A stretch of 64,000 bases of DNA from Dictyostelium discoideum (taxonomy: Eukaryota), in contig CM000153.2 of assembly GCA_000004695.1 (NCBI GenBank), forward strand, positions 2,912,001 through 2,976,000, in the 5' to 3' direction. The notes under the pieces were generated by a model that was not told the DNA's origin, ran no database searches, and worked only from the letters and a program-made list of their open reading frames with translations. This document shows, piece by piece, positions 1,006 to 41,733 of this stretch. Position 1 is the first letter of the stretch; every line of letters starts with the position of its first letter. Position numbers and translations under genes: made by a program.

Positions 1006-2361
1006 TTAAAATGGTTCAATTGATAATAATTTTTTACCTAAATCCGATAAATGAGGTGGTGAATAGTTAACGGTTTCTAAATTTGAAAATTTTTTAGCAA
1101 CATAACTTGGATGTTTTCCAGTTTGATACCAAATTTTTTGAGCCTCTGCGTATTGAATATTTATAGGTACCATTGGTAAATGAGCGGCATAAACCACCTC
1201 TCTAATTGATGGACCGATATGAATTGTATCATTACAATGTGGCATTCTCCAATCCCAAAATAAAACATCACCTCTTTCAATTGGAATATACTTTAATTGA
1301 TCAATTATATCTAAATGTTGACCATCTTGAAAATCATATGCATTACCTCTTTTTAAAATTTCTGTTGGTATTGGTGTTGGTATTTGATGGTCAGATGATG
1401 ATGATGATTGTTGTTGTTGCTGTAATTGAGATTTATGTTGATTAAAATATTTTACACATTTCTTATGAAATTTAGGTATTGTCCAAAAACCACCTTGACC
1501 AGGTTTTGGTGTATCAGTGCAACTAATGAATGCTTGAATTGGTTGCCAAAATCTTAAAGGAATATGTTCAATTTGTTTATCTTTATTTAAATGTTCACCT
1601 CTAAATAAATGAAATGGGTTACAATCTAAATGTAAACCTGTACCTTTTTGAAGTTTAATTTGTTGTTCTATAACTTTATTATTATTATTACTATTACAAT
1701 TACTATTACCATTACCATTACTATCTTCAATGATTGTTGGTATTCTAAAACCACATCTATTTACAAACATAAACATATGTTGTGGATCAAATTCACCATA
1801 TTCATTTGGCCATTCATTTTCATCGTTATAGGATAGATCTAAATCATCTTTGGTGATTGGTGTTGTTGAATAAGTTGATTGGAATAGTTGAACAAAACTA
1901 TCGTATAGATTTTTATCTTCTCTAATTTTATATTCATATTTACCATGATAAAAATTAACCATACCTCCGAATCCATTTGAAACATTTCCCATCTTTAACT
2001 CTTGTTTCCATAATAATTCAGACTCTTGAATTGAACCAATTGTTGTATTACCAAAATCAATGGATGCATTATTCTTTAAATATTCTCTAACTTCAATTTG
2101 ATGATTAGTTAATAATCTATCATCAATTAATTTGCTTTTAACTACAACATATCCATTTTCATTGAAATGTTCTATTTCTTCTTTTGTCAATGGTCCTTTA
2201 TATACAGGTTTCATCATACTATTATCTTGAAATTCCATTGTCGATGTTGGTACTATATTAAATGGTTTACTTAATGTTGTCATTGTTGATAAACCTAAAT
2301 TATTATTATTATTGTAACCACCATTAAATAATTTTTTTGTAATATTTTTAATTTTTAACAT
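1006..2361 (-). CDS. 2OG-Fe(II) oxygenase-like protein (PhyH-like or DUF1479-like fold), 451 aa, apparently single exon
   Basis: Uninterrupted minus-strand ORF starting with ATG. Motifs GLHLDCNP (HxD) and a distal His in RGDVLFWDWRMPHCN fit the 2-His-1-carboxylate oxygenase pattern. Low-complexity N/Q inserts are typical of this genome. The family assignment is from memory of motifs, not a search. Confidence 0.45.
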   Translation of the reverse strand: MLKIKNITKKLFNGGYNNNNNLGLSTMTTLSKPFNIVPTSTMEFQDNSMMKPVYKGPLTKEEIEHFNENGYVVVKSKLIDDRLLTNHQIEVREYLKNNASIDFGNTTIGSIQESELLWKQELKMGNVSNGFGGMVNFYHGKYEYKIREDKNLYDSFVQLFQSTYSTTPITKDDLDLSYNDENEWPNEYGEFDPQHMFMFVNRCGFRIPTIIEDSNGNGNSNCNSNNNNKVIEQQIKLQKGTGLHLDCNPFHLFRGEHLNKDKQIEHIPLRFWQPIQAFISCTDTPKPGQGGFWTIPKFHKKCVKYFNQHKSQLQQQQQSSSSSDHQIPTPIPTEILKRGNAYDFQDGQHLDIIDQLKYIPIERGDVLFWDWRMPHCNDTIHIGPSIREVVYAAHLPMVPINIQYAEAQKIWYQTGKHPSYVAKKFSNLETVNYSPPHLSDLGKKLLSIEPF

Positions 2362-2971: not shown

Positions 2972-3340
2972 AAAATTCAATTCAATTACACTTAAATTAT
3001 AGTTACATATAGTGGATATGTTATGGGAATAAAAAAAAAAAATGAAAATTTTTTTTTTTTATTTTTTTTTCGTTTTTTTTTTCGTTTTTTTTTTTTTCAA
3101 AATTAATAATAAATTAAGGGGGTCACATAGAAAATAAAAAAATAAAAAAGATGACAAACCCACCATCACACTGCATAAAATTACTTTTCACTTTAATGCT
3201 GAAATTATTACATCCAACCCTTATGATAGTGTAATAGTATTTTAAAGTTTGGAAAAACAGTGAAGGTTATGAATTTTATTTACAGTTTTTAAAATATTTT
3301 ATAATTTTTTTTTTTTTTTAAATTTAATAAAGAAATATTG

Positions 3341-3589
3341 GCCGTAGTGAATAGTACCTGACTCTTATAAGAGAAAAACCATATGTTTTCAATGTGTATT
3401 TGATGGGTTTTTTTTTATATTTAATGATGGAATATAGGCTTGAGTGAATAGTATCAGACTCTTATTAGGGAAAAGTCAGATGTGGAAACTGCCTAGGTTT
3501 TTTCTCTGCAAACGAAATCTAAACTCACTAAAGATGGAATCCCTAATGAATCGGATTGAAATCCGAATGCAAGATCTTTTCATAACTTT
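3341..3589. repeat. Partial 40-bp module (3341..3380) plus copy 2 of the ~207-bp element
   Basis: 3341..3380 (gccgtagtgaatagtacctgactcttataagagaaaaacc) resembles the internal segment at 2822..2861. 3381..3589 is near-identical to copy 1. Confidence 0.7.
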
Positions 3590-3676
3590 AAAAAATAATT
3601 TCAACTTTTGCTAAACTAATGTTTTGTCCAAACACTTGTTATGGGTTTTACAAAACTTTTCATTTTTTCATTTTTC

Positions 3677-3744
<68 letters not shown>

Positions 3745-3990
3745 CACCCACTTTTTTTTTGTTTTATTTTATTTTTTAAAGAGGTATAAAAAAAAGAGAC
3801 AGGGGTTGATTTTAAAAATTATAAAAAAAAAGACCTTGTAATTTGTGTTTTTTTATAATTAAATTTAATATTTTCAAAATATCTTAATGTTTGGATATTT
3901 TTTTTTTTTTTTTTATTTTTTTTTTATTTTTTTTATTTTTTTTTTTTTATTTTTTTTTTTTTTTTTGTGAATAAGCAATTTGTTTATAAA

Positions 3991-5295
3991 ATGAGTGATA
4001 TATTTATTGGTGTAATGTCAGGTACATCATTGGATGGTATTGATGTTGTAATTGTTGAATTTAATGATAATGATGATGATATAAAAAGAATAAATGTTAA
4101 ACAAAGTTATTCACATCCAATGCCAATTAATATAAAGAATGATATATTATCAATGTGTCAAGGTCAAAAAACTACATTATCAGAAGTTGGTAATTTAAAT
4201 AGAAGATTAGGTATAGTTTATTCAGAAGCAATAAATGAAGCAATAAAGTTATCATCAATTGATCCAAATTCAATTTCAGCAATTGGATGTCATGGTCAAA
4301 CTGTTTGGCATCAACCACCAACCAGAAAACATGGTGATGATGGTGATAATGATGATAATGATGATGATAATGATGGATTTACAATTCAATTAGGTGATTG
4401 TAATAGAATTGCAACATTAACTGGTATAACTACAATTGGTGATTTTAGAAATAGAGATATTTCATATGGTGGACAAGGTGCACCATTAACACCATCATTT
4501 CATAAATATTCATTATCAAGTTTCAATGAAAATAGAATCATTTTAAATATTGGTGGAATTTCTAATATAACTTTATTACCATCATTATCATCATCATCAT
4601 CATCATCAAATAATATTCAAGTTACAGGATTTGATACAGGAGCAGGTAATATTTTATTAGATAGTTGGATTCAATTAAAAAAGGATGGTACACCATATGA
4701 TAAAGATGGTGAATGGGCAAATCAAGGAAATGTAAATGAAAAACTTTTAAAATCATTATATGATCATAGTGATTCATTTTTAAATAAATTACCACCAAAA
4801 TCAACTGGTCGTGAATTGTTTAATATTCAATGGTTATTAAATGTAATTGAATCAATTAAAAATGATGATGATGATAATGATAATGATAATATTATTATAA
4901 AAGATGAAGATGTTCAAGCAACACTATTAGAATTTACATGTAAAACAATAGTTGATGAAATTAAAAAAATTAAAATTTGTAAAATTGATAGAGTTTTAGT
5001 TTGTGGAGGTGGTAGTAAAAATAAATTATTAATGGATAAACTTTCTAGATTATTAAAAAAAGATGAAAATGAAAATGGATGTGGTGGTAGTGTTAGTAGC
5101 GGTAGTAGTGGTAGTTGTAAACTTTCAATAACTGATGAATTTGGTATCAGTAGTCAAGATATGGAGGCAATTGCATTTGCATGGTTTGCAAAAAGAACTT
5201 TAAATAATCAACCTTCAAATTTAATAAGTGTGACTGGTGCTTCAAAAGAAACAATCTTGGGTGCAATTTATTTAAAAAATAATTTTAATAATTGA
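3991..5295 (+). CDS. Anhydro-N-acetylmuramic acid kinase / levoglucosan kinase family (AnmK, UPF0075) protein
   Basis: The first ATG is at 3991; the track start at 3967 is a GTG. The N-terminus IGVMSGTSLDGIDVVIV matches the AnmK signature GxMSGTSxDGID. C-terminal motifs VLVCGGGSKN and EAIAFAWFAKRTL are also present. Acidic D/N low-complexity inserts. Single exon. Confidence 0.8.
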   Translation: MSDIFIGVMSGTSLDGIDVVIVEFNDNDDDIKRINVKQSYSHPMPINIKNDILSMCQGQKTTLSEVGNLNRRLGIVYSEAINEAIKLSSIDPNSISAIGCHGQTVWHQPPTRKHGDDGDNDDNDDDNDGFTIQLGDCNRIATLTGITTIGDFRNRDISYGGQGAPLTPSFHKYSLSSFNENRIILNIGGISNITLLPSLSSSSSSSNNIQVTGFDTGAGNILLDSWIQLKKDGTPYDKDGEWANQGNVNEKLLKSLYDHSDSFLNKLPPKSTGRELFNIQWLLNVIESIKNDDDDNDNDNIIIKDEDVQATLLEFTCKTIVDEIKKIKICKIDRVLVCGGGSKNKLLMDKLSRLLKKDENENGCGGSVSSGSSGSCKLSITDEFGISSQDMEAIAFAWFAKRTLNNQPSNLISVTGASKETILGAIYLKNNFNN

Positions 5296-6326
5296 TTAAA
5301 AAAAAGAAAAAAAAAAAATAATGAAAAAAAAAAAAAAAAAAAGGAAAAGGTTGTGGTGTAAAATTTGTAAATTGTTTAAGTGTTCGATAAAAATAATAAA
5401 AAATAAAAAATTAAAAAATCAAGTAGGGTGTGTGTGTTGTTGTTGTTAATGATCAATCAAATTGAATTTAATTTCGATGGGTGAGTAAACACACACCAAA
5501 AATGTGGGTGAAAGTGTGGAATATTCATAATTTTTAAAAAACTAAGATCATAAACAAAATAAATAAATAAAAAAATAATTAAAAAAAAAAAAAAAAAAAA
5601 AATTATAAAAATGATTGGTTTACTAAGGTATTAAGAATTAAATATCAACATAAATTGTGCTAAAAATAGAATTTCAAAAAAAAAAAAAAAAAAAAAAATG
5701 GTTGTTGAAAATTTTCCATTTACACACACACAAAAAGAAATGATGATTTTTATTTTATTTTTTTTTTAAATTGATTAAGATTTTTTTTTTATTATATACA
5801 TATACATATTTAAAAAATTTTAATTTAAAAAAATAAATTAAAAAATAAAAAGATGATTTTAATAATTGATTTATAAAAAAAAAAAAAAAAATAATAATAA
5901 TAATAATAATAATATAAAATTTTAATTATTATAATGATTAAAAAATAAAAAGAATAAAAAAAAATCAATTTTACTACAATAAAATTCATTTTAATATAGA
6001 GTGAAATAAAAAGCATCGATTCATAATCTAGTGATAATACCATTGGTACAAACTAAGAATTTTATTTTTAAATAATCTCAAAAAGTGAGATTAAAAATCA
6101 CCGAACTTGAGATTAAAAAAATATTTATTTTCCTTTTTATTTTGATTTTACTAATAATTTATTATATTAAATCAACAATAACAACAACAACACAACCACA
6201 ACCACAATAACAAAAACAACAACAACCACAACCACAATAACAAAAAATCACTTCCCCAATAATCAACACACTCAAAAAACTTTACACCCTTCTCTACCCA
6301 CTATTACCATTTGGGTGTTTTTATTA

Positions 6327-15171: not shown

Positions 15172-15388
15172 AAGTTATGACCAAACTCTTAGGATCATTT
15201 CTAGAGTATCGTCTATTAAAATTATTCATCAATAATTTTTCCTCTTTCACAGCTAGGATGATGATATACACTCACTACACGAAAGCGTGAAACCGTTATT
15301 ATCGAATGATTCATTTATTCTTTATTAATATTGATGACCGTCTAATTCAGGGATGAATTGGTTGTGTGGTGGGATTCGTACTGGCTCT
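15172..15388 (+). ncRNA. U3 small nucleolar RNA gene, copy A
   Basis: The 5' region UAUGACCAAACUCUUAGGAUCAUUUCUAGAGUAUCGUC matches the conserved U3 GAC/A'/A boxes (yeast UAGGAUCAUUUCUAUAGGAAUCGUC, human GGGAUCAUUUCUAUAG). Box C' is GGAUGAUGAUA, box B-like GCGUGAAACCG (human GCGUGAAGCCG), and box C UUGAUGACCGU. The gene ends at a T7 run (15388..15394). A DUSE motif TCCCATAA lies at 15113..15120, about 55 nt upstream. Confidence 0.8.
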
Positions 15389-16528: not shown

Positions 16529-18101
16529 TTAGTTGAATTCTTTTCCAAATACTTTTTCAAAGTAAGATATTAATGTATAATTATTAGATGATGATTGGTT
16601 TTTTAAAGTTTCTTCAAATATTTCTAGATTTGGTTTAAAATTTAAGTCTTTAATTATAAAATCAATAAAGTCAATATATCCATATTGAAAAGAAGTCTCG
16701 AATATACCTTCAAAACCGATTGTTGCAATTTCATCTTTATATTTTTTATAAATATTAAGGTTTCCATAAATTCGAGCAGCATTTTTAGTTACTGCAATTA
16801 ATTCAAAGAAAGGTCCATATGGTCGTGTTTGTTCATTTAGTTGTTGTTGTCTTGAATTTATTAAAAATTCAATTGTTGATATATCATTTTTTTTAACGAT
16901 TTCCAAAACTGTTTTAATCTCAACAAAATTTCCATATCTATTATATCCATTGTTTGAAAATATCATTTCTTTCATTTTATCAAATTGACCATTTAAATAA
17001 TAGCAAGTAAATAATCCTTCATTATCATCAGTTTTAATTTTATGGGGATAATTTTTTAAAATATGATATTTGTTTTCAACTTCTAGATAAATATATCTTA
17101 AACTTTCAATTTTACTATTTTCAATACAATCTATTAGTTTGTTTAAAGTTGATACTTGAATTTCTTTATATGGTTTTCTTGTAAATTGTTGGTCAATATA
17201 TTTTTTTAAATTAATATTATTTTTGAAATCATTAAAATTTTCAATCATAAAATTAATATCACATTTTAAAATTGAAATATTTTTTTGACTAGATAATAAT
17301 GTATATTGTTGATAATAATTATTTTTAAAATGGTTTGCAATTTTATAATTTGAAATTATTTGACCAAAACAAAATGATTTTTCAATTACAGTTGGTCCAG
17401 AAAGTTTTTCAAGTTGATTTTTAATATAATCAAACATCAATGGTGATTTAATTGATTCAATCACTGATGTATTACAAATTGGCGGAAGACTCTCAAATGC
17501 CATCTTAACCAACTCGATATCATCTGATAATATGACCTCTTTAATTAAGTCGATTTTAATATTTGGAATTGATTCAGAATAAATAGCTGGAATTTGTTCG
17601 ATTGCATCTTTATAATATTGATGAATTAATTCTTTTTGATTTTTAACAAAACGAAATTTACTATCTGAAAATTTACCAGTTTGTACTTCTTGAAATGGAT
17701 GTTTGTATTCAATTCTACCAAAAGAAGAAAATTTTTCAGGATAAAATATACCAAACATATTTGGATGAAGACATGAACTAGGTTGTGATTTTAAATCTTC
17801 ATTTGATATCATTTTGCTATTGTATTTAAATTTATGAAATAAAAAATTTTCAATTATACTTTCTTTTTTAAAAATGTGTATTATTGCCATTTCATAAATT
17901 GATTTAACTCTTTCATCATTTGGGTTGAATTCACCAATTGTTGTTGATAACTCTTGTTTTGTAAATGATTTTGAAATTTCATTTAGTTCATTTTGATTTT
18001 TAAAACTTTTAAAACTTTTAATTTCATTTATATATTTTATTACTTGGTTTTGATTATTTTTCATTTGATCATTCTTTGAAGGTAATATAAATGGATTGTT
18101 A

Positions 18102-18172
<71 letters not shown>

Positions 18173-18194
18173 TTTATTATCATTATTTTTATTA

Positions 18195-18273
<79 letters not shown>

Positions 18274-19348
18274 CATTATTATTATTATTTTTATTACTAC
18301 TATTGTTGTCGTCATTCAAAATTGACTTTAATTTTGGTTTATATGAATCACTAAAACAATTTAAATTATTTAACCTTAAAATTGTTTTACATAAATCTAT
18401 AATTGAAGATAAAGGATAAGAGAATGCATAAAGTTGAATACAAAGTTTTGTATTTTTTGAATTTAATGATTCATTTGGTGTTTCGTTGATAAATTGTGGT
18501 ATTTTAATCTTTTCAATTAAAAATTCAATCTTTTCATTAAAGTTATTATTATCTTTAGTGAAATAAATATTTTCAGGTGAAAATACAGTTTCAAACCATA
18601 TACTATTTAATTGCGATTCTGTAATATCATCATTTGATTTAAATAATTGATTGAAAATATATTGTGCAACTTTTAATGACCCAATTGCAATAGCATTTTT
18701 AAAAAAGTTAAATGATAATTTTTTACCATTTGAATAATAATAATATTCATTAATTACTTTCATCGATGCAACATTATCATAAACCAATGATAAATATTTA
18801 ATTTCTCTTAATGATTTTAATTTTTTATTTTTAATACCATCATCATTAATTTCTGTTGACAATGGTGGCAATTGAAAATATAATTTATAATTTTTAAATA
18901 AATTTTTAAAAAATTCTTCATCATCTTTGAAAACATTGAAAATTGATGATTTATAATAAACTCTTATTTTTTTAAATTTTTTAGCATCTAATTTATCTCT
19001 TGATAAATTTATAGGTAAATAAGTTTTATTTAAATCACCTCTCGAGTTTGAATCGGTTTGCTGATCATCTTCTGGTGAATTACTACTGAATATTAATTGT
19101 TCACCTCTGATAACTTTACATTTTAATAATTCTGTATAACCATTTTTTATCATCCATCCTACTCTAACAATTTCTTCATATCTATAAATCCCATTTCTAA
19201 ATTCTGATTTTAAACTTGTGAATATTAAATTTTTTATATATTTATTTCTAAAAACAGAAAAAAATAATTTTTCAATGTCATAATTATTATTATGATTATT
19301 ATTATTTTCAATCTTTAATTTTTTTTTATAACGAAATGGATCATCCAT
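16529..19348 (-). CDS. Hypothetical protein of 939 aa with a long poly-N tract; family not recognised; paralog 1
   Basis: ATG-initiated uninterrupted ORF. About 90% identical, with indels, to the 21402..24143 ORF. An (AAT)n tract of about 190 nt at 18108..18300 encodes N/D/K. Confidence 0.6.
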
Positions 19349-19642: not shown

Positions 19643-19859
19643 AAGTTATGACCAAACTCTTAGGATCATTTCTAGAGTATCGTCTATTAAAATTATTCAT
19701 CAATAATTTTTCCTCTTTCACAGCTAGGATGATGATACACACTCACTACACGAAAGCGTGAAACCGTTATTATCGAATGATTCATTTATTCTTTATTAAT
19801 ATTGATGACCGTCTAATTCAGGGATGAATTGGTTGTGTGGTGGGATTCGTACTGGCTCT
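19643..19859 (+). ncRNA. U3 snoRNA gene, copy B
   Basis: Near-identical to copy A, with one t-to-c change in the box C' region. DUSE TCCCATAA at 19585..19592. T7 terminator at 19859..19865. Confidence 0.8.
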
Positions 19860-21401: not shown

Positions 21402-24143
21402 TTATTTTAATATTGAAAAACCTATTTGGTTGGGTTCTTTTCCAAATACTTTTTCAAAGTAAGATGTTAATGTATAATTATTAGATGATGATTGATTTTT
21501 TAAAGTTTCTTCAAATCTAGAAAGATTTGGTTCAAATTTTAAATCTTTAATTATAAAATCAATAATGTCAATATATCCATATTGAAAAGAAATATAGAAA
21601 TCACCTTCAAAATCCATTGTTTCAAAATAATCTTTAAGGTTTTTTAAAATATTAAGGTTTCCATAAATTCGAGCAGCATTTTTAAGTGCCCTAATTAATT
21701 CAATGAAAAGTTCTTTTGGTCTTGTTTGTTGTGTTTGATCATTTTGTTGTTGTAGTTGTTGTCTTGAATTTATTAAAAATTCAATTGTTGATATATCATT
21801 TCTTTTAACGATTTCAAAAATTGTATAAATTTCAACAAATCTAACACATCCATTTTCTGAAAATATCATTTCTTTCATTTTATCAAATTGACCATTTAAA
21901 TAATAGCAAGTAAATAATCCTTCATTATCATCAGTTTTAATTTTATGAGGATAATTTTTTAAAACATGATAATGGCATTCAACTTTTGGACAAATATATC
22001 TTAAACTTTCAATTTTACTATTTTCAATACAATCTATTAATTTATTTAAAGTTGAAACTTGAATTTCTTCATTTGATTTTCTTGTAAATTGTTGACCAAT
22101 GTATGTATTTAAATTAATATTATTTTTGAAATCATTAAAATTTTCAATCATAAAATTAATATCACATTTTGAAATTGAAATATTTTCTTGACCAGAAAAT
22201 AATGAATATTGTTGATAATAATAATTTTTAAAATGGTTTGCAATTTTATAATTTGAAATGATTTGATCGAAACAAAGTGAATTTTCAGTTGGTTTAGAAA
22301 GTTTTTCAAGTTGATTTTTAATATAATCAAACATCAATGGTGATTTAATTGATTCAATCACTGATGTATTAAAATTTAGTGGATGAAGACTCTCAAATAC
22401 CATCTTAACCAACTCAATATCATCTGATAATATGACCTCTTTAATTAAGTCTATTTTAATATTACCAGAAAAGTGAGCTGGAATTTGTTCGATTGCATCT
22501 TTATAATATTGATGAATTAATTCTTTTTGATTTTTAACAAAACAAAATTTACTATCTGGAAATTTACCAATTTGTACTTTTTCAAATGGATTTTTATAAT
22601 CAATTTTAGCAAAAGAAGAAAATTTTTCAATTTGTATTTTTTCATGATTTTTATAATCACTACTAATAAAAGCAAAAGGTGAAGAAATTTTTTCAAGATA
22701 AAATATACCAAACATATTTGGATGAAGACATGAACTAGGTTGTGATTTTAAATCTTCATTTGATATCATTTTGCTATTGTATTTAAATTTATGAAATAAA
22801 AAATTTTCAATTATACTTTCTTTTTTAAAAATGTGTATTATTGCCATTTCATAAATTTTTTTAACTCTTTTATCATTTGACTTGAATTCACCGATTTTTG
22901 TTGATAACTCTTGTTCTGTAAATGATTTTGAAATTTTATTTAATTCATCTAGATTTTTAAAACTTTTAAAACTTTTAATTTCATTTATATATTTTATTAC
23001 TTGGTTTTGATTATTTTTCATTTGATCATTTTTTAAAGATAATGTAAATGGATTGTTATTTTTATTATTATTATTATTACTATTGTTGTCATTCAAAATT
23101 GATTCCAGTTTTGATTTATATGAATCATTATTTAAAATATTTAGTAGTAAAATTGTTTTACATAAACCTATTATTAAAGATAAAGGATAAGAGAATGCAT
23201 AAAGTTGAATACAAAGTTTTGTATTTTTTGAATTTAATGATTCATTTGGTGTTTCGTTGATAAATTGTGGTATTTTAATTTCTTCAATTAAAAATTCAAT
23301 CTTTTCATTAAAATTATTATTATCTTTAGTGAAATAAATATTTTCAGGTACAAATACGGTTTCAGACCATATACTATTTAATTGTGATTCTGTAATTTCA
23401 TCATTTGATTTAAATAATTGATTGAAAATATATTGTGCAACTTTTAATGACCCAATTGCAATAGCATTTTTAAAAAAGTTGAATGATAACTTTTTACCAT
23501 TTGAATAATAATAATATTCATTAATTACTTTAATTGATGCCACATTATCATAAACCAATGACAAATATTTAATTTCTCTTAATGATTTTAATTTTTTATT
23601 TTTAATACCATCATCGTCATCATTGTCATCATCATTAATTTCTTTTTCTTGATTTTTTTGATTTTGTTCTGGTAATTGAAAATATAATTTATAATTTTTA
23701 AATAAATTTTTAAAAAATTCTTCATCATCTTTGAAAACATTGAAAATTGATGATTTATAATAAACTCTTTTTTTTTTAAATTTTTTAACATCTAATTTAT
23801 CTCTTGATAAATTTATAGGTAAATAAGTGTTATCGAAATCACCTCTCAATTTTGAATCATAATAAGTTTGTGGACCATCTTCTGGTGAATTACTACTGAA
23901 TATTAATTGTTCACCTCTGATAACTTTACATTTTAATAATTCTGTATAACCATTTTTTATCATCCATCCCACTCTAACAATTTCTTCATATCTATAAATC
24001 CCATTTCTAAATTCTGATTTTAAACTTGTGAATATTAAATTTTTTATATATTTATTTCTAAAAACAGAAAAAAATAATTTTTCAATATTGTTATTATTAT
24101 TTTCAATTTTTAATTTTTTTTTATAACGAAATGGATCATCCAT
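21402..24143 (-). CDS. Hypothetical protein of 913 aa; paralog 2 of the 16529..19348 gene
   Basis: ATG ORF. It shares the N-terminus MDDPFRYKKKLKIENNNN...IEKLFFSVFRNKYIKNLIFTSLKSEFRNGIYRYEEIVRVGWMIKNGYTELLKCKVIRGEQLIF with paralog 1. The central poly-N is mostly deleted, and there is an extra roughly 30-aa insertion (FAFISSDYKNHEKIQIEKFSSFAKIDYKNP). Confidence 0.6.
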   Translation of the reverse strand: MDDPFRYKKKLKIENNNNNIEKLFFSVFRNKYIKNLIFTSLKSEFRNGIYRYEEIVRVGWMIKNGYTELLKCKVIRGEQLIFSSNSPEDGPQTYYDSKLRGDFDNTYLPINLSRDKLDVKKFKKKRVYYKSSIFNVFKDDEEFFKNLFKNYKLYFQLPEQNQKNQEKEINDDDNDDDDGIKNKKLKSLREIKYLSLVYDNVASIKVINEYYYYSNGKKLSFNFFKNAIAIGSLKVAQYIFNQLFKSNDEITESQLNSIWSETVFVPENIYFTKDNNNFNEKIEFLIEEIKIPQFINETPNESLNSKNTKLCIQLYAFSYPLSLIIGLCKTILLLNILNNDSYKSKLESILNDNNSNNNNNKNNNPFTLSLKNDQMKNNQNQVIKYINEIKSFKSFKNLDELNKISKSFTEQELSTKIGEFKSNDKRVKKIYEMAIIHIFKKESIIENFLFHKFKYNSKMISNEDLKSQPSSCLHPNMFGIFYLEKISSPFAFISSDYKNHEKIQIEKFSSFAKIDYKNPFEKVQIGKFPDSKFCFVKNQKELIHQYYKDAIEQIPAHFSGNIKIDLIKEVILSDDIELVKMVFESLHPLNFNTSVIESIKSPLMFDYIKNQLEKLSKPTENSLCFDQIISNYKIANHFKNYYYQQYSLFSGQENISISKCDINFMIENFNDFKNNINLNTYIGQQFTRKSNEEIQVSTLNKLIDCIENSKIESLRYICPKVECHYHVLKNYPHKIKTDDNEGLFTCYYLNGQFDKMKEMIFSENGCVRFVEIYTIFEIVKRNDISTIEFLINSRQQLQQQNDQTQQTRPKELFIELIRALKNAARIYGNLNILKNLKDYFETMDFEGDFYISFQYGYIDIIDFIIKDLKFEPNLSRFEETLKNQSSSNNYTLTSYFEKVFGKEPNQIGFSILK

Positions 24144-24421: not shown

Positions 24422-24638
24422 AAGTTATGACCAAACTCTTAGGATCATTTCTAGAGTATCGTCTATTAAAATTATTCATCAATAATTTTTCCTCTTTCAC
24501 AGCTAGGATGATGATACACACTCACTACACGAAAGCGTGAAACCGTTATTATCGAATGATTCATTTATTCTTTATTAACATTGATGACCGTCTAATTCAG
24601 GGATGAATTGGTTGTGTGGTGGGATTCGTACTGGCTCT
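24422..24638 (+). ncRNA. U3 snoRNA gene, copy C
   Basis: Near-identical to copies A and B. DUSE TCCCATAA at 24364..24371. T-run terminator at 24638..24644. No LRAT-like gene follows this copy. Confidence 0.8.
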
Positions 24639-40646: not shown

Positions 40647-41733
40647 ATGGGTAAACATGTACAATTAGTGATGGGTCCAGCTGGAAGTGGAAAGGTATTA
40701 TTTTTTATTTTTTATAAAAATTTAATAATATATATACTAATTCTTTTTATTCATATAAATATAAAGTCAACATATTGTGACACAATGAGAAAATATTGTG
40801 AAGAAATTAAAAGATCAGTACATATTGTAAATTTAGATCCAGCAGCAGAAGTATTTGAATATCCAGTATCGGTTGATATAAAGAATTTAGTTACAGTTGA
40901 TGAAGTTATGGATGAATTACATTATGGACCAAATGGTGGATTGGTTTATGCAATGGAATATTTAATAGAGAATATGGATTGGTTAACAGATGAATTGGGT
41001 GATTATGAAGATGACTATTTAATTATCGATTGTCCAGGTCAAATTGAATTATACTCTCATATACCAGTCATGAGAATACTGGTTGACCATTTACAACAAA
41101 TTGGGTATAGTGTTTGTTCTGTATTTTTAGTAGATTCTCAATTCATTCTAGATAATTGTAAATTTATAAGTGGTGCATTAATGTGTTTATCTGCTATGGT
41201 TCGTTTAGAAGTACCTCATATTAATGTTTTAACTAAAATTGATGTTTTAAAAACTTCTGATCAATATAAAGAAATTGAAAAGTAATTATATTTTAAATTA
41301 AATTTAGGTTAAAATATATATATATATAATATTAATTCATAAATTATATTTAGGTTTTTAGATTTAGAAGTACAAAATTTAGTTGAAGAATTAAATTTAG
41401 AAACTCATGATAGATATCATAGAATGAATAAAGCAATTGGTTCATTAGTAAGTTTTTTCAAAATATTATGGTTATACATATACATATATAGATACTAATT
41501 GTTATTATTATTATTATTATTTTTATTTTTAGTTGGAAGATTTTAGTTTAGTTGGTTTTGTACCATTGGATATTACAGATCAAGAGAGTTTGAATGTTTT
41601 ATTACAACATATTGATAATTCAATTCAATATGGTGAAGATTTAGAACCAAAGGAACCACCATTAGAGAATGATGATGATGATGATGATGACGAAGGTGAT
41701 GAAATCATTAGGATGATGAATGGAAATCTTTAA
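40647..41733 (+). CDS. gpn3: GPN-loop GTPase 3 (GPN3/ATPBD1C ortholog), 285 aa, 4 exons
   Basis: Exons 40647..40694, 40767..41281, 41354..41447 and 41533..41733, with phases 0, 2 and 0. The protein [16 protein letters not shown]|STYCDTM...VNLDPAAE...[12 protein letters not shown]...[15 protein letters not shown]...VFLVDSQF...EIEK|FLD...[21 protein letters not shown] aligns with human GPN3 along its length. Confidence 0.9.

Follow-up and report, generated by a model that had tools for sequence, protein, structure and literature searches.

We report that a 64,000-nucleotide stretch of Dictyostelium discoideum DNA (assembly GCA_000004695.1, contig CM000153.2, positions 2,912,001–2,976,000 of the forward strand; the window in the following) carries DDB_G0285145, a sugar kinase gene of the anhydro-N-acetylmuramic acid kinase (AnmK) family, here called anmK. 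Judged by its sequence, DDB_G0285145 encodes a full-length AnmK-type kinase (EC 2.7.1.170 family). That the gene is at once of AnmK type, resident in the amoeba's genome and of bacterial origin we hold to be highly probable. Its phylogeny indicates an old transfer from a bacterium to an amoeba before the social amoebae diversified, which was probably a single event.

Family and active site of the kinase

The open reading frame (ORF) runs without interruption for 434 codons on the forward strand, with its ATG at 3991 and the TAA at 5293–5295. In the ORF listing it extends upstream to a GTG at 3967 by a mechanical first-start rule only; translation from the ATG aligns with bacterial homologues from residue 4 on. 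The protein matches exactly that of D. discoideum AX4 DDB_G0285145 (XP_639894.1; UniRef100_Q54NM2; UniProt Q54NM2), which is "hypothetical" at NCBI and has the automatic UniRef name anhydro-N-acetylmuramic acid kinase. No study of it came up in a literature search by gene identifier and for AnmK together with Dictyostelium or amoeba. A first, sequence-only reading of this DNA had described a single-exon gene with the N-terminal motif GVMSGTSLDGIDVV and a C-terminal CGGG motif, and both were located as described, at residues 7–20 and 338–341, respectively (Table 1). A signal peptide is missing, the first strand of the kinase coming directly at the start, and we therefore expect the protein to be cytosolic.

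The same reading had assigned the gene broadly to the AnmK/levoglucosan kinase family. This call was correct and can be narrowed to the AnmK type. Residues 4–428 matched positions 2–366 of the 367 in the Pfam AnmK profile PF03702 (E 4e-122, 408 bits, cut-off 24). The protein also passed the NCBIfam AnmK equivalog NF007139 (427 bits vs a cut-off of 367), and stayed under the respective cut-off of each of 13 other NCBIfam (PRK09585) AnmK subfamily equivalogs. Compared with PDB sequences, it matched Shewanella AnmK (E 2.4e-73) and P. aeruginosa AnmK (~1e-66) better than Lipomyces levoglucosan kinase (LGK, 1e-42). Identity to the biochemically characterized AnmK of E. coli K-12 was 44% (186/362 ungapped positions). 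An AlphaFold2 model built from 50 homologues had a mean predicted local distance difference test score (pLDDT) of 85 and a predicted template modeling score (pTM) of 0.87, and its two-domain ASKHA fold superposes on solved AnmK structures. With Foldseek, the target-normalized template modeling (TM) score was 0.95–0.96 against the AnmK crystals 3cqy and 3qbx, at a root-mean-square deviation (rmsd) of 1.7–2.2 Å. The LGK of the fungus Lipomyces starkeyi (4zlu/4yh5) resembles the dictyostelid protein in belonging to the same Pfam family, in coupling the opening of an anhydro ring to 6-phosphorylation and in coming from a eukaryote within a mostly bacterial family. In contrast to the AnmK structures, however, it gave a TM score of only 0.81 with an rmsd of ~4 Å and a structural identity of 25–27%, and the dictyostelid protein did not group with it. 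DDB_G0285145 is thus nearer to AnmK than to LGK in sequence and in predicted structure, and lies outside the LGK subgroup.

Residues critical in P. aeruginosa AnmK (PaAnmK) are S12, D14, T97, R129, N168, D182, D191 and E326 (bioRxiv 10.64898/2026.03.13.711553). In our alignment these correspond to S13, D15, T104, R153, N192, D215, D224 and E392 of DDB_G0285145, which are the same in 10/10 dictyostelid sequences and, with hardly an exception, in the 181 bacterial ones. The catalytic aspartate, whose possible absence on alignment the sequence-only reading had raised, is therefore in place together with the other key residues. S13 and D15 (S12 and D14 in PaAnmK) contact Mg2+ and the ATP phosphates (bioRxiv 10.64898/2026.03.13.711553). 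At a separate position, Cavenderia AnmK has Q where DDB_G0285145 has D151. Because the LGK alignment keeps the equivalents of T97 and R129, the conserved residues speak for an intact active site and alone are no proof of sugar specificity; residue rules to tell AnmK from LGK specificity were dropped for this reason.

The mechanism that we infer, by homology to the characterized E. coli and P. aeruginosa enzymes and from the conserved residues, is as follows. ATP–Mg would be bound through the GVMSGTSLDG loop (D15), and 1,6-anhydro-N-acetylmuramic acid (abbreviated anhMurNAc) by T104, R153 and N192. D215 would act as the base for the attack of water on C1, by which the anhydro ring is opened, and E392 would assist the transfer of the γ-phosphate to O6, which yields N-acetylmuramic acid 6-phosphate (MurNAc-6-phosphate).

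Alternatively, the enzyme might be a domesticated AnmK with a changed job, i.e., act on another 1,6-anhydro-sugar, such as levoglucosan from burnt plant matter of forest soil or anhydro-N-acetylglucosamine, or sense or detoxify anhydromuropeptides at low activity instead of serving nutrition. AnmK from the tick Ixodes ricinus offers a precedent, since it keeps the catalytic residues, yet has about 1/500 of the bacterial activity, an N-to-C change at the equivalent of N192 and a suspected substrate shift (bioRxiv 10.64898/2026.03.13.711553). Moreover, fungal LGK has T97, R129 and the catalytic aspartate too, so these alone leave specificity unfixed, none of the dictyostelid anmK loci examined has an etherase partner, and the ratio of nonsynonymous to synonymous substitution rates (dN/dS) of 0.29 speaks for only moderate constraint. 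However, sequence and model are much nearer to genuine AnmKs than to LGK, and the AnmK equivalog cut-off was passed. The asparagine mutated in ticks, N192, is retained, and no residue of the substrate pocket varies across dictyostelid groups 1, 2 and 4. We consider a changed job unlikely and retain phosphorylation of anhMurNAc as the putative activity.

Probable bacterial origin, and residency in the host genome

Orthologues of anmK occur in group 4, i.e., in D. discoideum (three strains), two D. cf. discoideum isolates, D. citrinum, D. firmibasis and D. purpureum, in group 2 with Heterostelium album and Acytostelium subglobosum, and in group 1 with Cavenderia fasciculata. Groups 1, 2 and 4 span the deepest split in Dictyostelia. 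For group 3 species and non-dictyostelid Amoebozoa, none turned up in the databases searched. The gene has a single exon in D. purpureum, H. album and Acytostelium as well. In Cavenderia (GL883026.1; 10001–11372 of our locus L085) one 88-nucleotide GT..AG intron splits the conserved FRQR|DMALGG (DFRxRD motif).

We searched 1.84 billion cluster representatives with a dictyostelid profile. The three best matches were dictyostelid, and no eukaryote was among the 27 lower-ranked matches that were checked by name; the named ones were gammaproteobacterial (e.g., Zobellella, Psychrosphaera and Psychrobacter), and most were unnamed metagenome sequences. Further eukaryotes for the clade of Dictyostelia and Enterobacterales were found neither in the best 150 of these representatives (27 name-checked) nor in the best 120 named matches, and a profile seeded with groups 1 and 2 and D. 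purpureum gave no additional eukaryotes. A search of prokaryotes, with one genome for each of 185,579 species, returned nearly exclusively Enterobacterales among the best 80 loci, at 41–48% identity, and also Photobacterium, Gilliamella, Rodentibacter and Gallibacterium.

In a neighbor-joining (NJ) tree of 191 sequences (10 dictyostelid, 181 bacterial; 365 columns), the Enterobacterales formed a clade with 97.5% bootstrap support and the dictyostelid lineages stood at its base, Dictyostelia and Enterobacterales together having 56%. Next came five unnamed metagenome sequences, then Vibrionaceae, Aeromonadaceae, Orbaceae and Pasteurellaceae; the bacterial part of the tree therefore tracks the species tree. 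For maximum-likelihood (ML) placement on a bacteria-only backbone of 35 taxa we used a self-written program with a Gonnet-derived rate matrix and four gamma categories (alpha ~0.7). The Enterobacterales stem was the best edge for the group 4 clade, for Cavenderia by itself and for the dictyostelid clade as a whole, ahead of the next edge by log-likelihood (lnL) differences of 6, 5.9 and 11, respectively. Heterostelium with Acytostelium went to the same node, in a 0.75-unit tie between two edges meeting there. Within the enterobacterial crown, every placement was worse than the best by at least ~15 lnL units. In both analyses the recipient sequences are nested in a specific clade of gammaproteobacteria (Vibrio/Aeromonas/Pasteurella/Enterobacterales) and not with other eukaryotes. 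The comparison of bacterial AnmK and fungal LGK clades that the sequence-only reading had proposed thus places them in bacterial AnmK, and its candidate ancient horizontal acquisition is supported by nearest relatives in the gammaproteobacteria, mainly Enterobacterales, with 45–48% identity, the presence in groups 1, 2 and 4 and the position of all lineages on the Enterobacterales stem.

Two of the five metagenome sequences nearest the node of Dictyostelia and Enterobacterales, P0269 and P0222, were considered as possibly eukaryotic and ruled out by their bacterial contigs. Around P0269 lie NagZ (Glyco_hydro_3), an SSF transporter, an AmgK-like APH kinase and a MurU-like nucleotidyltransferase (L083, 7462–12640). 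The only such neighbor of P0222 is a MurU-like gene that follows it (L084, 10001–11821). Judged by these gene assignments, the recycling genes belong to an anabolic, non-MurQ recycling route.

We propose that a gammaproteobacterium at the base of present Enterobacterales would have passed anmK to the ancestor of Dictyostelia in one event. Alternatively, related gammaproteobacterial anmK genes might have entered different dictyostelid lineages in two or more independent transfers, e.g., group 4 apart from groups 1 and 2. Several observations weigh against the single event. The dictyostelid lineages are as similar or more similar to Enterobacterales (50–54%) than to other dictyostelid groups (47–58%), and NJ gave them as a paraphyletic grade, with 30% bootstrap support for monophyly. 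Only three weak positions were found as Dictyostelia-specific signature residues, which was unhelpful. The four topologies compared by ML differed in lnL by ≤3 with a standard error (SE) of 3–4, i.e., within one SE, and the trees come from NJ and home-made Gonnet-plus-gamma code on 365 columns rather than from a standard package. Moreover, the window locus shares nothing but anmK with the D. purpureum, H. album, Cavenderia and Acytostelium loci, and the D. purpureum locus likewise lacks synteny with those of the other groups, so synteny is unable to tie group 4 to them.

However, dictyostelid lineages that were placed independently all fell on the same single branch, and three transfers out of one unsampled donor lineage would be less parsimonious than one. 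Fully optimized ML gave slightly higher likelihoods for monophyletic Dictyostelia (lnL −20122.9 to −20124.5) than for the NJ grade (−20125.8). Groups 1 and 2 also have microsynteny in common. The order DTW-domain gene, GPN-loop GTPase gene, anmK is found in Cavenderia (L085, 7275–11372) and in Acytostelium (L086, 7350–11155), with anmK lying 136–170 bp downstream of the orthologous GPN-loop GTPase gene (85% identical segment), itself preceded by the DTW-domain gene, which is orthologous too. This arrangement speaks for one insertion passed on vertically between these groups. H. album and group 4 have lost it. An ATP_bind_1 (GPN-loop GTPase) exon in the window (40647–41285, plus strand) was examined as a counterpart of the Cavenderia and Acytostelium neighbor and rejected as a 31%-identical paralogue. 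Overall, we regard repeated transfer as quite unlikely and a single event as the probable history.

Vertical inheritance from an ancient eukaryotic, or mitochondrial-endosymbiont, AnmK with loss in most eukaryotes would fit the patchy occurrence of the family in eukaryotes (fungal LGK, Naegleria, ciliates, ticks and rotifers). However, the dictyostelid sequences lie deep in crown gammaproteobacteria beside Enterobacterales, where the bacterial topology is that of the species tree. No other eukaryote fell into this clade among the matches listed, fungal LGK is far more distant, and the tick and rotifer genes are of Chitinophagaceae origin. This history is very improbable; the broad, vertically inherited eukaryotic clade that the sequence-only reading had named as the contrary outcome was not found.

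In the recipient, anmK would have evolved as a eukaryotic gene, with AT-rich codons, triplet-repeat loop insertions and, in Cavenderia, a spliceosomal intron. Its G+C content at third codon positions (GC3) is 0.057, compared with 0.09–0.19 in other ORFs of the window (overall G+C ~22%) and 0.40–0.64 in enterobacterial anmK. Relative synonymous codon usage (RSCU) correlated with that of the pooled neighboring ORFs (r 0.96) and not with that of Yersinia anmK (−0.15). Eukaryotic genes surround anmK, i.e., those for an SNF2/HSA remodeller, an ABC-B transporter, a RhoGAP, a GPN-loop GTPase, Avl9 and a tyrosine phosphatase. The local order of the window (upstream minus-strand gene, anmK, small gene, SNF2/HSA) recurs in D. 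firmibasis, and dN/dS between the anmK of D. discoideum and that of D. firmibasis is 0.29. Three D. discoideum strains and D. firmibasis, assembled independently, all have the locus, and the chromosome record is 5.6 Mb long. For anmK being contaminating bacterial DNA, an artefact of the assembly or a pseudogene in decay, nothing speaks but the bacterial-type family and the missing intron in D. discoideum; all three are excluded by the host-like GC3 and codon usage, the Dictyostelium-type triplet-repeat inserts, the position between eukaryotic genes on a chromosome record of this size, the recurrence of the locus in other assemblies, the intact ORF with invariant active-site residues and the dN/dS. 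As the sequence-only reading had held, anmK is not a contaminant; it is a resident, intact and selectively maintained nuclear gene of D. discoideum.

Loop insertions and surroundings of the gene

Five insertions relative to bacterial AnmKs add ~60 residues to the protein (Table 1). The inserts are D/N/S/G-rich and are encoded by imperfect GAT/AAT/TCA/GGT triplet repeats, with a (ATGATGATA)n repeat in insert 2 and a (GTGGTAGTA)n repeat in insert 5. Insert lengths differ among D. discoideum strains, that of insert 2 included, and among sister species, and the inserts are mostly missing from AnmK of D. purpureum, Heterostelium, Acytostelium and Cavenderia. Low-confidence stretches of the AlphaFold2 model coincide exactly with the inserts, all of which are loops between secondary-structure elements. 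According to the model, the inserts are ordinary Dictyostelium repeat expansions that are tolerated on the protein surface. The Dictyostelium-style acidic inserts noticed by the sequence-only reading are thus real, five in number, encoded by triplet repeats and variable in length.

Table 1. Features of the kinase gene, in window coordinates
Feature	Residues	Position	Strand	Basis and remarks
anmK-type kinase gene DDB_G0285145		3991–5295	+	Single exon, 434 codons plus TAA stop; ORF, Pfam, NCBIfam, exact protein match
N-terminal phosphate-binding loop GVMSGTSLDGIDVV	7–20	4009–4050	+	Alignment to 3qbw/8bre; invariant in 10 dictyostelids and nearly all 181 bacterial sequences
Insert 1, ~5 residues (NDDDI region), hairpin between strands E17–23/E35–42	~27–31	4069–4083	+	Bacterial gap; pLDDT <50 at residues 28–30
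T104 codon (PaAnmK T97; N-acetyl group of anhMurNAc)	104	4300–4302	+	T in 191/191 sequences
Insert 2, acidic D/N/G-rich loop between strands E103–108/E130–134	111–129	4321–4377	+	15–16-residue gap in all bacterial homologues; pLDDT 52–61
R153 codon (PaAnmK R129; lactyl carboxylate of anhMurNAc)	153	4447–4449	+	R in 191/191; LGK has R too, so non-discriminating
N192 codon (PaAnmK N168, E. coli N173; Cys in tick AnmK)	192	4564–4566	+	N in 191/191
Insert 3, poly-Ser/Asn loop between strands E191–196/E212–217	199–207	4585–4611	+	Bacterial gap; (CAT)9.7 repeat 4580–4608; pLDDT ~60
D215 codon (PaAnmK D182; putative catalytic base, activates water to attack the anomeric carbon)	215	4633–4635	+	D in 191/191
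Insert 4, D/N-rich loop between helices H279–292/H305–326	293–303	4867–4899	+	(ATGATA)n repeat 4862–4890; pLDDT ~61
CGGG motif; ASKHA adenosine/phosphate-2 region	338–341	5002–5013	+	Invariant in two alignments
Insert 5, E/N/G/S-rich loop between helix H345–361/strand E377–380	360–377	5068–5121	+	18-residue gap vs E. coli AnmK; pLDDT <50 at 362–373
E392 codon (PaAnmK E326; gamma-phosphate and sugar contact)	392	5164–5166	+	E in 191/191

Homopolymer tracts typical of Dictyostelium intergenic DNA lie beside anmK, at 3680–3745 (~65 T), 3900–3966 (~67, T-rich) and 5298–5342 (~45 A). A 212-nucleotide sequence occurs twice in the intergenic DNA upstream, at 2765–2976 and 3381–3594 (plus strand, 98% identical), with an 80%-identical fragment at 3313–3386. 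The copies are GC-richer than their surroundings, and the window holds no further copy. Rfam gave no match even at E ≤ 1, and a tRNA scan gave none. The two copies could be an unannotated pair of noncoding RNA genes or fragments of a repeat element. Divergently from anmK, a gene at 1006–2361 (minus strand) has a partial Pfam match to the Gig2-like family (PF07350, formerly DUF1479; E 2e-11) and no NCBIfam match; this family is found in both bacteria and eukaryotes.

Elsewhere in the window we found three genes for U3 small nucleolar RNA (Rfam RF00012, 86–89 bits) at 15177–15385, 19648–19856 and 24427–24635 (plus strand), spaced 4.5–4.8 kb. Two large paralogous ORFs lie between them on the minus strand (16529–19348 and 21402–24143), which are 85% identical over their first ~350 residues and have no Pfam domain. 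The arrangement looks like a tandem segmental duplication carrying the U3 genes.

Candidate role and meaning for bacterivorous amoebae

In enterobacteria, the step after AnmK is taken by the etherase MurQ, which yields N-acetylglucosamine 6-phosphate (GlcNAc-6-P) and D-lactate. As a candidate salvage function, of the kind that the sequence-only reading had proposed, the D. discoideum enzyme would capture anhMurNAc from the peptidoglycan of phagocytosed bacteria, from which an etherase would then produce GlcNAc-6-P and D-lactate as a source of carbon and nitrogen. With bacterial AnmK (E. coli b1640; P. aeruginosa 3qbw/8cpb; Shewanella 3cqy) it has in common a full-length collinear sequence, 44% identical to that of E. 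coli, the ASKHA fold (TM 0.95 for the model), the same catalytic and substrate residues and the lack of a signal peptide. In contrast, the D. discoideum gene lies in a eukaryotic chromosome, has eukaryotic codons and five low-complexity loop insertions, and has no operon or recycling neighborhood. Because peptidoglycan recycling is meaningless for a cell without a wall of its own, its role must be catabolic or sensory, and since the recipient is a bacterivorous protist, a nutritional role is plausible. Naegleria is reported to combine AnmK with an active GKRP-type MurNAc-6-phosphate etherase and a D-lactate dehydrogenase, a set connected with digesting the walls of bacteria (PMC9928731; bioRxiv 10.64898/2026.05.08.723886, citing Veiga-da-Cunha et al. 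2009). As a bacterivorous amoeba with an AnmK gene it provides a precedent for such a role, but in Naegleria the etherase partner has been demonstrated, whereas our search in dictyostelids covered the anmK loci.

Several points weigh against a role in using bacterial walls. Eukaryotic lysozymes are hydrolases and yield reducing N-acetylmuramic acid, not the 1,6-anhydro form. The supply of anhMurNAc would therefore be limited to the ends of glycan chains and the turnover pool of the prey, unless the amoeba has enzymes of the lytic transglycosylase type. As the kinase has no signal peptide, a transporter from phagosome to cytosol would be required. A MurQ or GKRP etherase, MupP/AmgK/MurU, NagZ, AmpD and AmpG were found neither in the 64-kb window nor within 10 kb of anmK in four other dictyostelids, the rest of the D. 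discoideum genome not having been searched, and a literature search on Dictyostelium MurQ, GKRP or etherase returned nothing relevant. Tick AnmK, with ~1/500 of the bacterial activity, moreover illustrates that conserved residues are no guarantee of the ancestral role. We lean slightly towards a role in vivo in using the cell walls of eaten bacteria. Averaged over identity, residency, origin and role, the explanation as a whole appears likely. A more specific reading, which we offer tentatively and consider doubtful, is that dictyostelids have kept a peptidoglycan-recycling kinase since before their radiation, in a cytosolic route that would capture or sense 1,6-anhydro-muropeptide sugars leaking from phagosomes, i.e., a eukaryotic counterpart of the AmpG/NagZ/AnmK branch.

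The sequence-only reading had named fungal levoglucosan kinases as the only well-known eukaryotic members of the family. This is outdated by reports on Naegleria (PMC9928731), ticks and rotifers (bioRxiv 10.64898/2026.03.13.711553) and anaerobic ciliates, which carry anmK together with murQ (PMC13198582). In the tick I. ricinus and in rotifers, anmK was acquired by horizontal gene transfer (HGT) from Chitinophagaceae, and the 2026 preprint claimed such transfers to be previously unreported (bioRxiv 10.64898/2026.03.13.711553). As in these animals, a bacterial anmK was fixed in a eukaryotic lineage of Dictyostelia, took on host codons, gained an intron (in Cavenderia), kept its catalytic residues and was probably long inherited vertically. 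In contrast, the dictyostelid donor was a gammaproteobacterium near Enterobacterales, and N192 is kept. The dictyostelid case is a transfer independent of, and older than, the tick and rotifer one, from a different donor. It is a solid gene transfer and not an unprecedented one, AnmK in eukaryotes being no longer new. The published set of D. discoideum HGT candidates numbers 16–18 genes, including the peptidoglycan-related pscA (Peptidase S13), and AnmK is not on the list (Sucgang et al. 2011, PMC3188802, Table 2). anmK resembles this set as a bacterial-type gene in D. discoideum with a D. purpureum orthologue, embedded in a bacterial clade. The screen demanded a Pfam domain absent from fungi, plants and animals (PMC3188802), and AnmK is probably missing because fungi have LGK of the same Pfam family.

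Dictyostelid anmK is thus an old, well-documented addition to the growing list of eukaryotes with an independently captured anmK, and a second peptidoglycan-related bacterial gene, beside pscA, in this predator of bacteria. Dictyostelium makes the function of a eukaryotic AnmK tractable, since gene knockouts, metabolomics and growth on defined prey bacteria are standard there. Should the enzyme prove active on anhMurNAc, it would become testable how a phagocyte makes or imports anhydro-muramyl sugars and whether a downstream etherase exists. If the kinase has indeed been kept since before the radiation of Dictyostelia and no etherase exists, a non-nutritional role would be possible, e.g., prey sensing or muropeptide detoxification. 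Given such retention, AnmK would, together with the cases in ticks, rotifers, ciliates and Naegleria, be a repeatedly domesticated gene.

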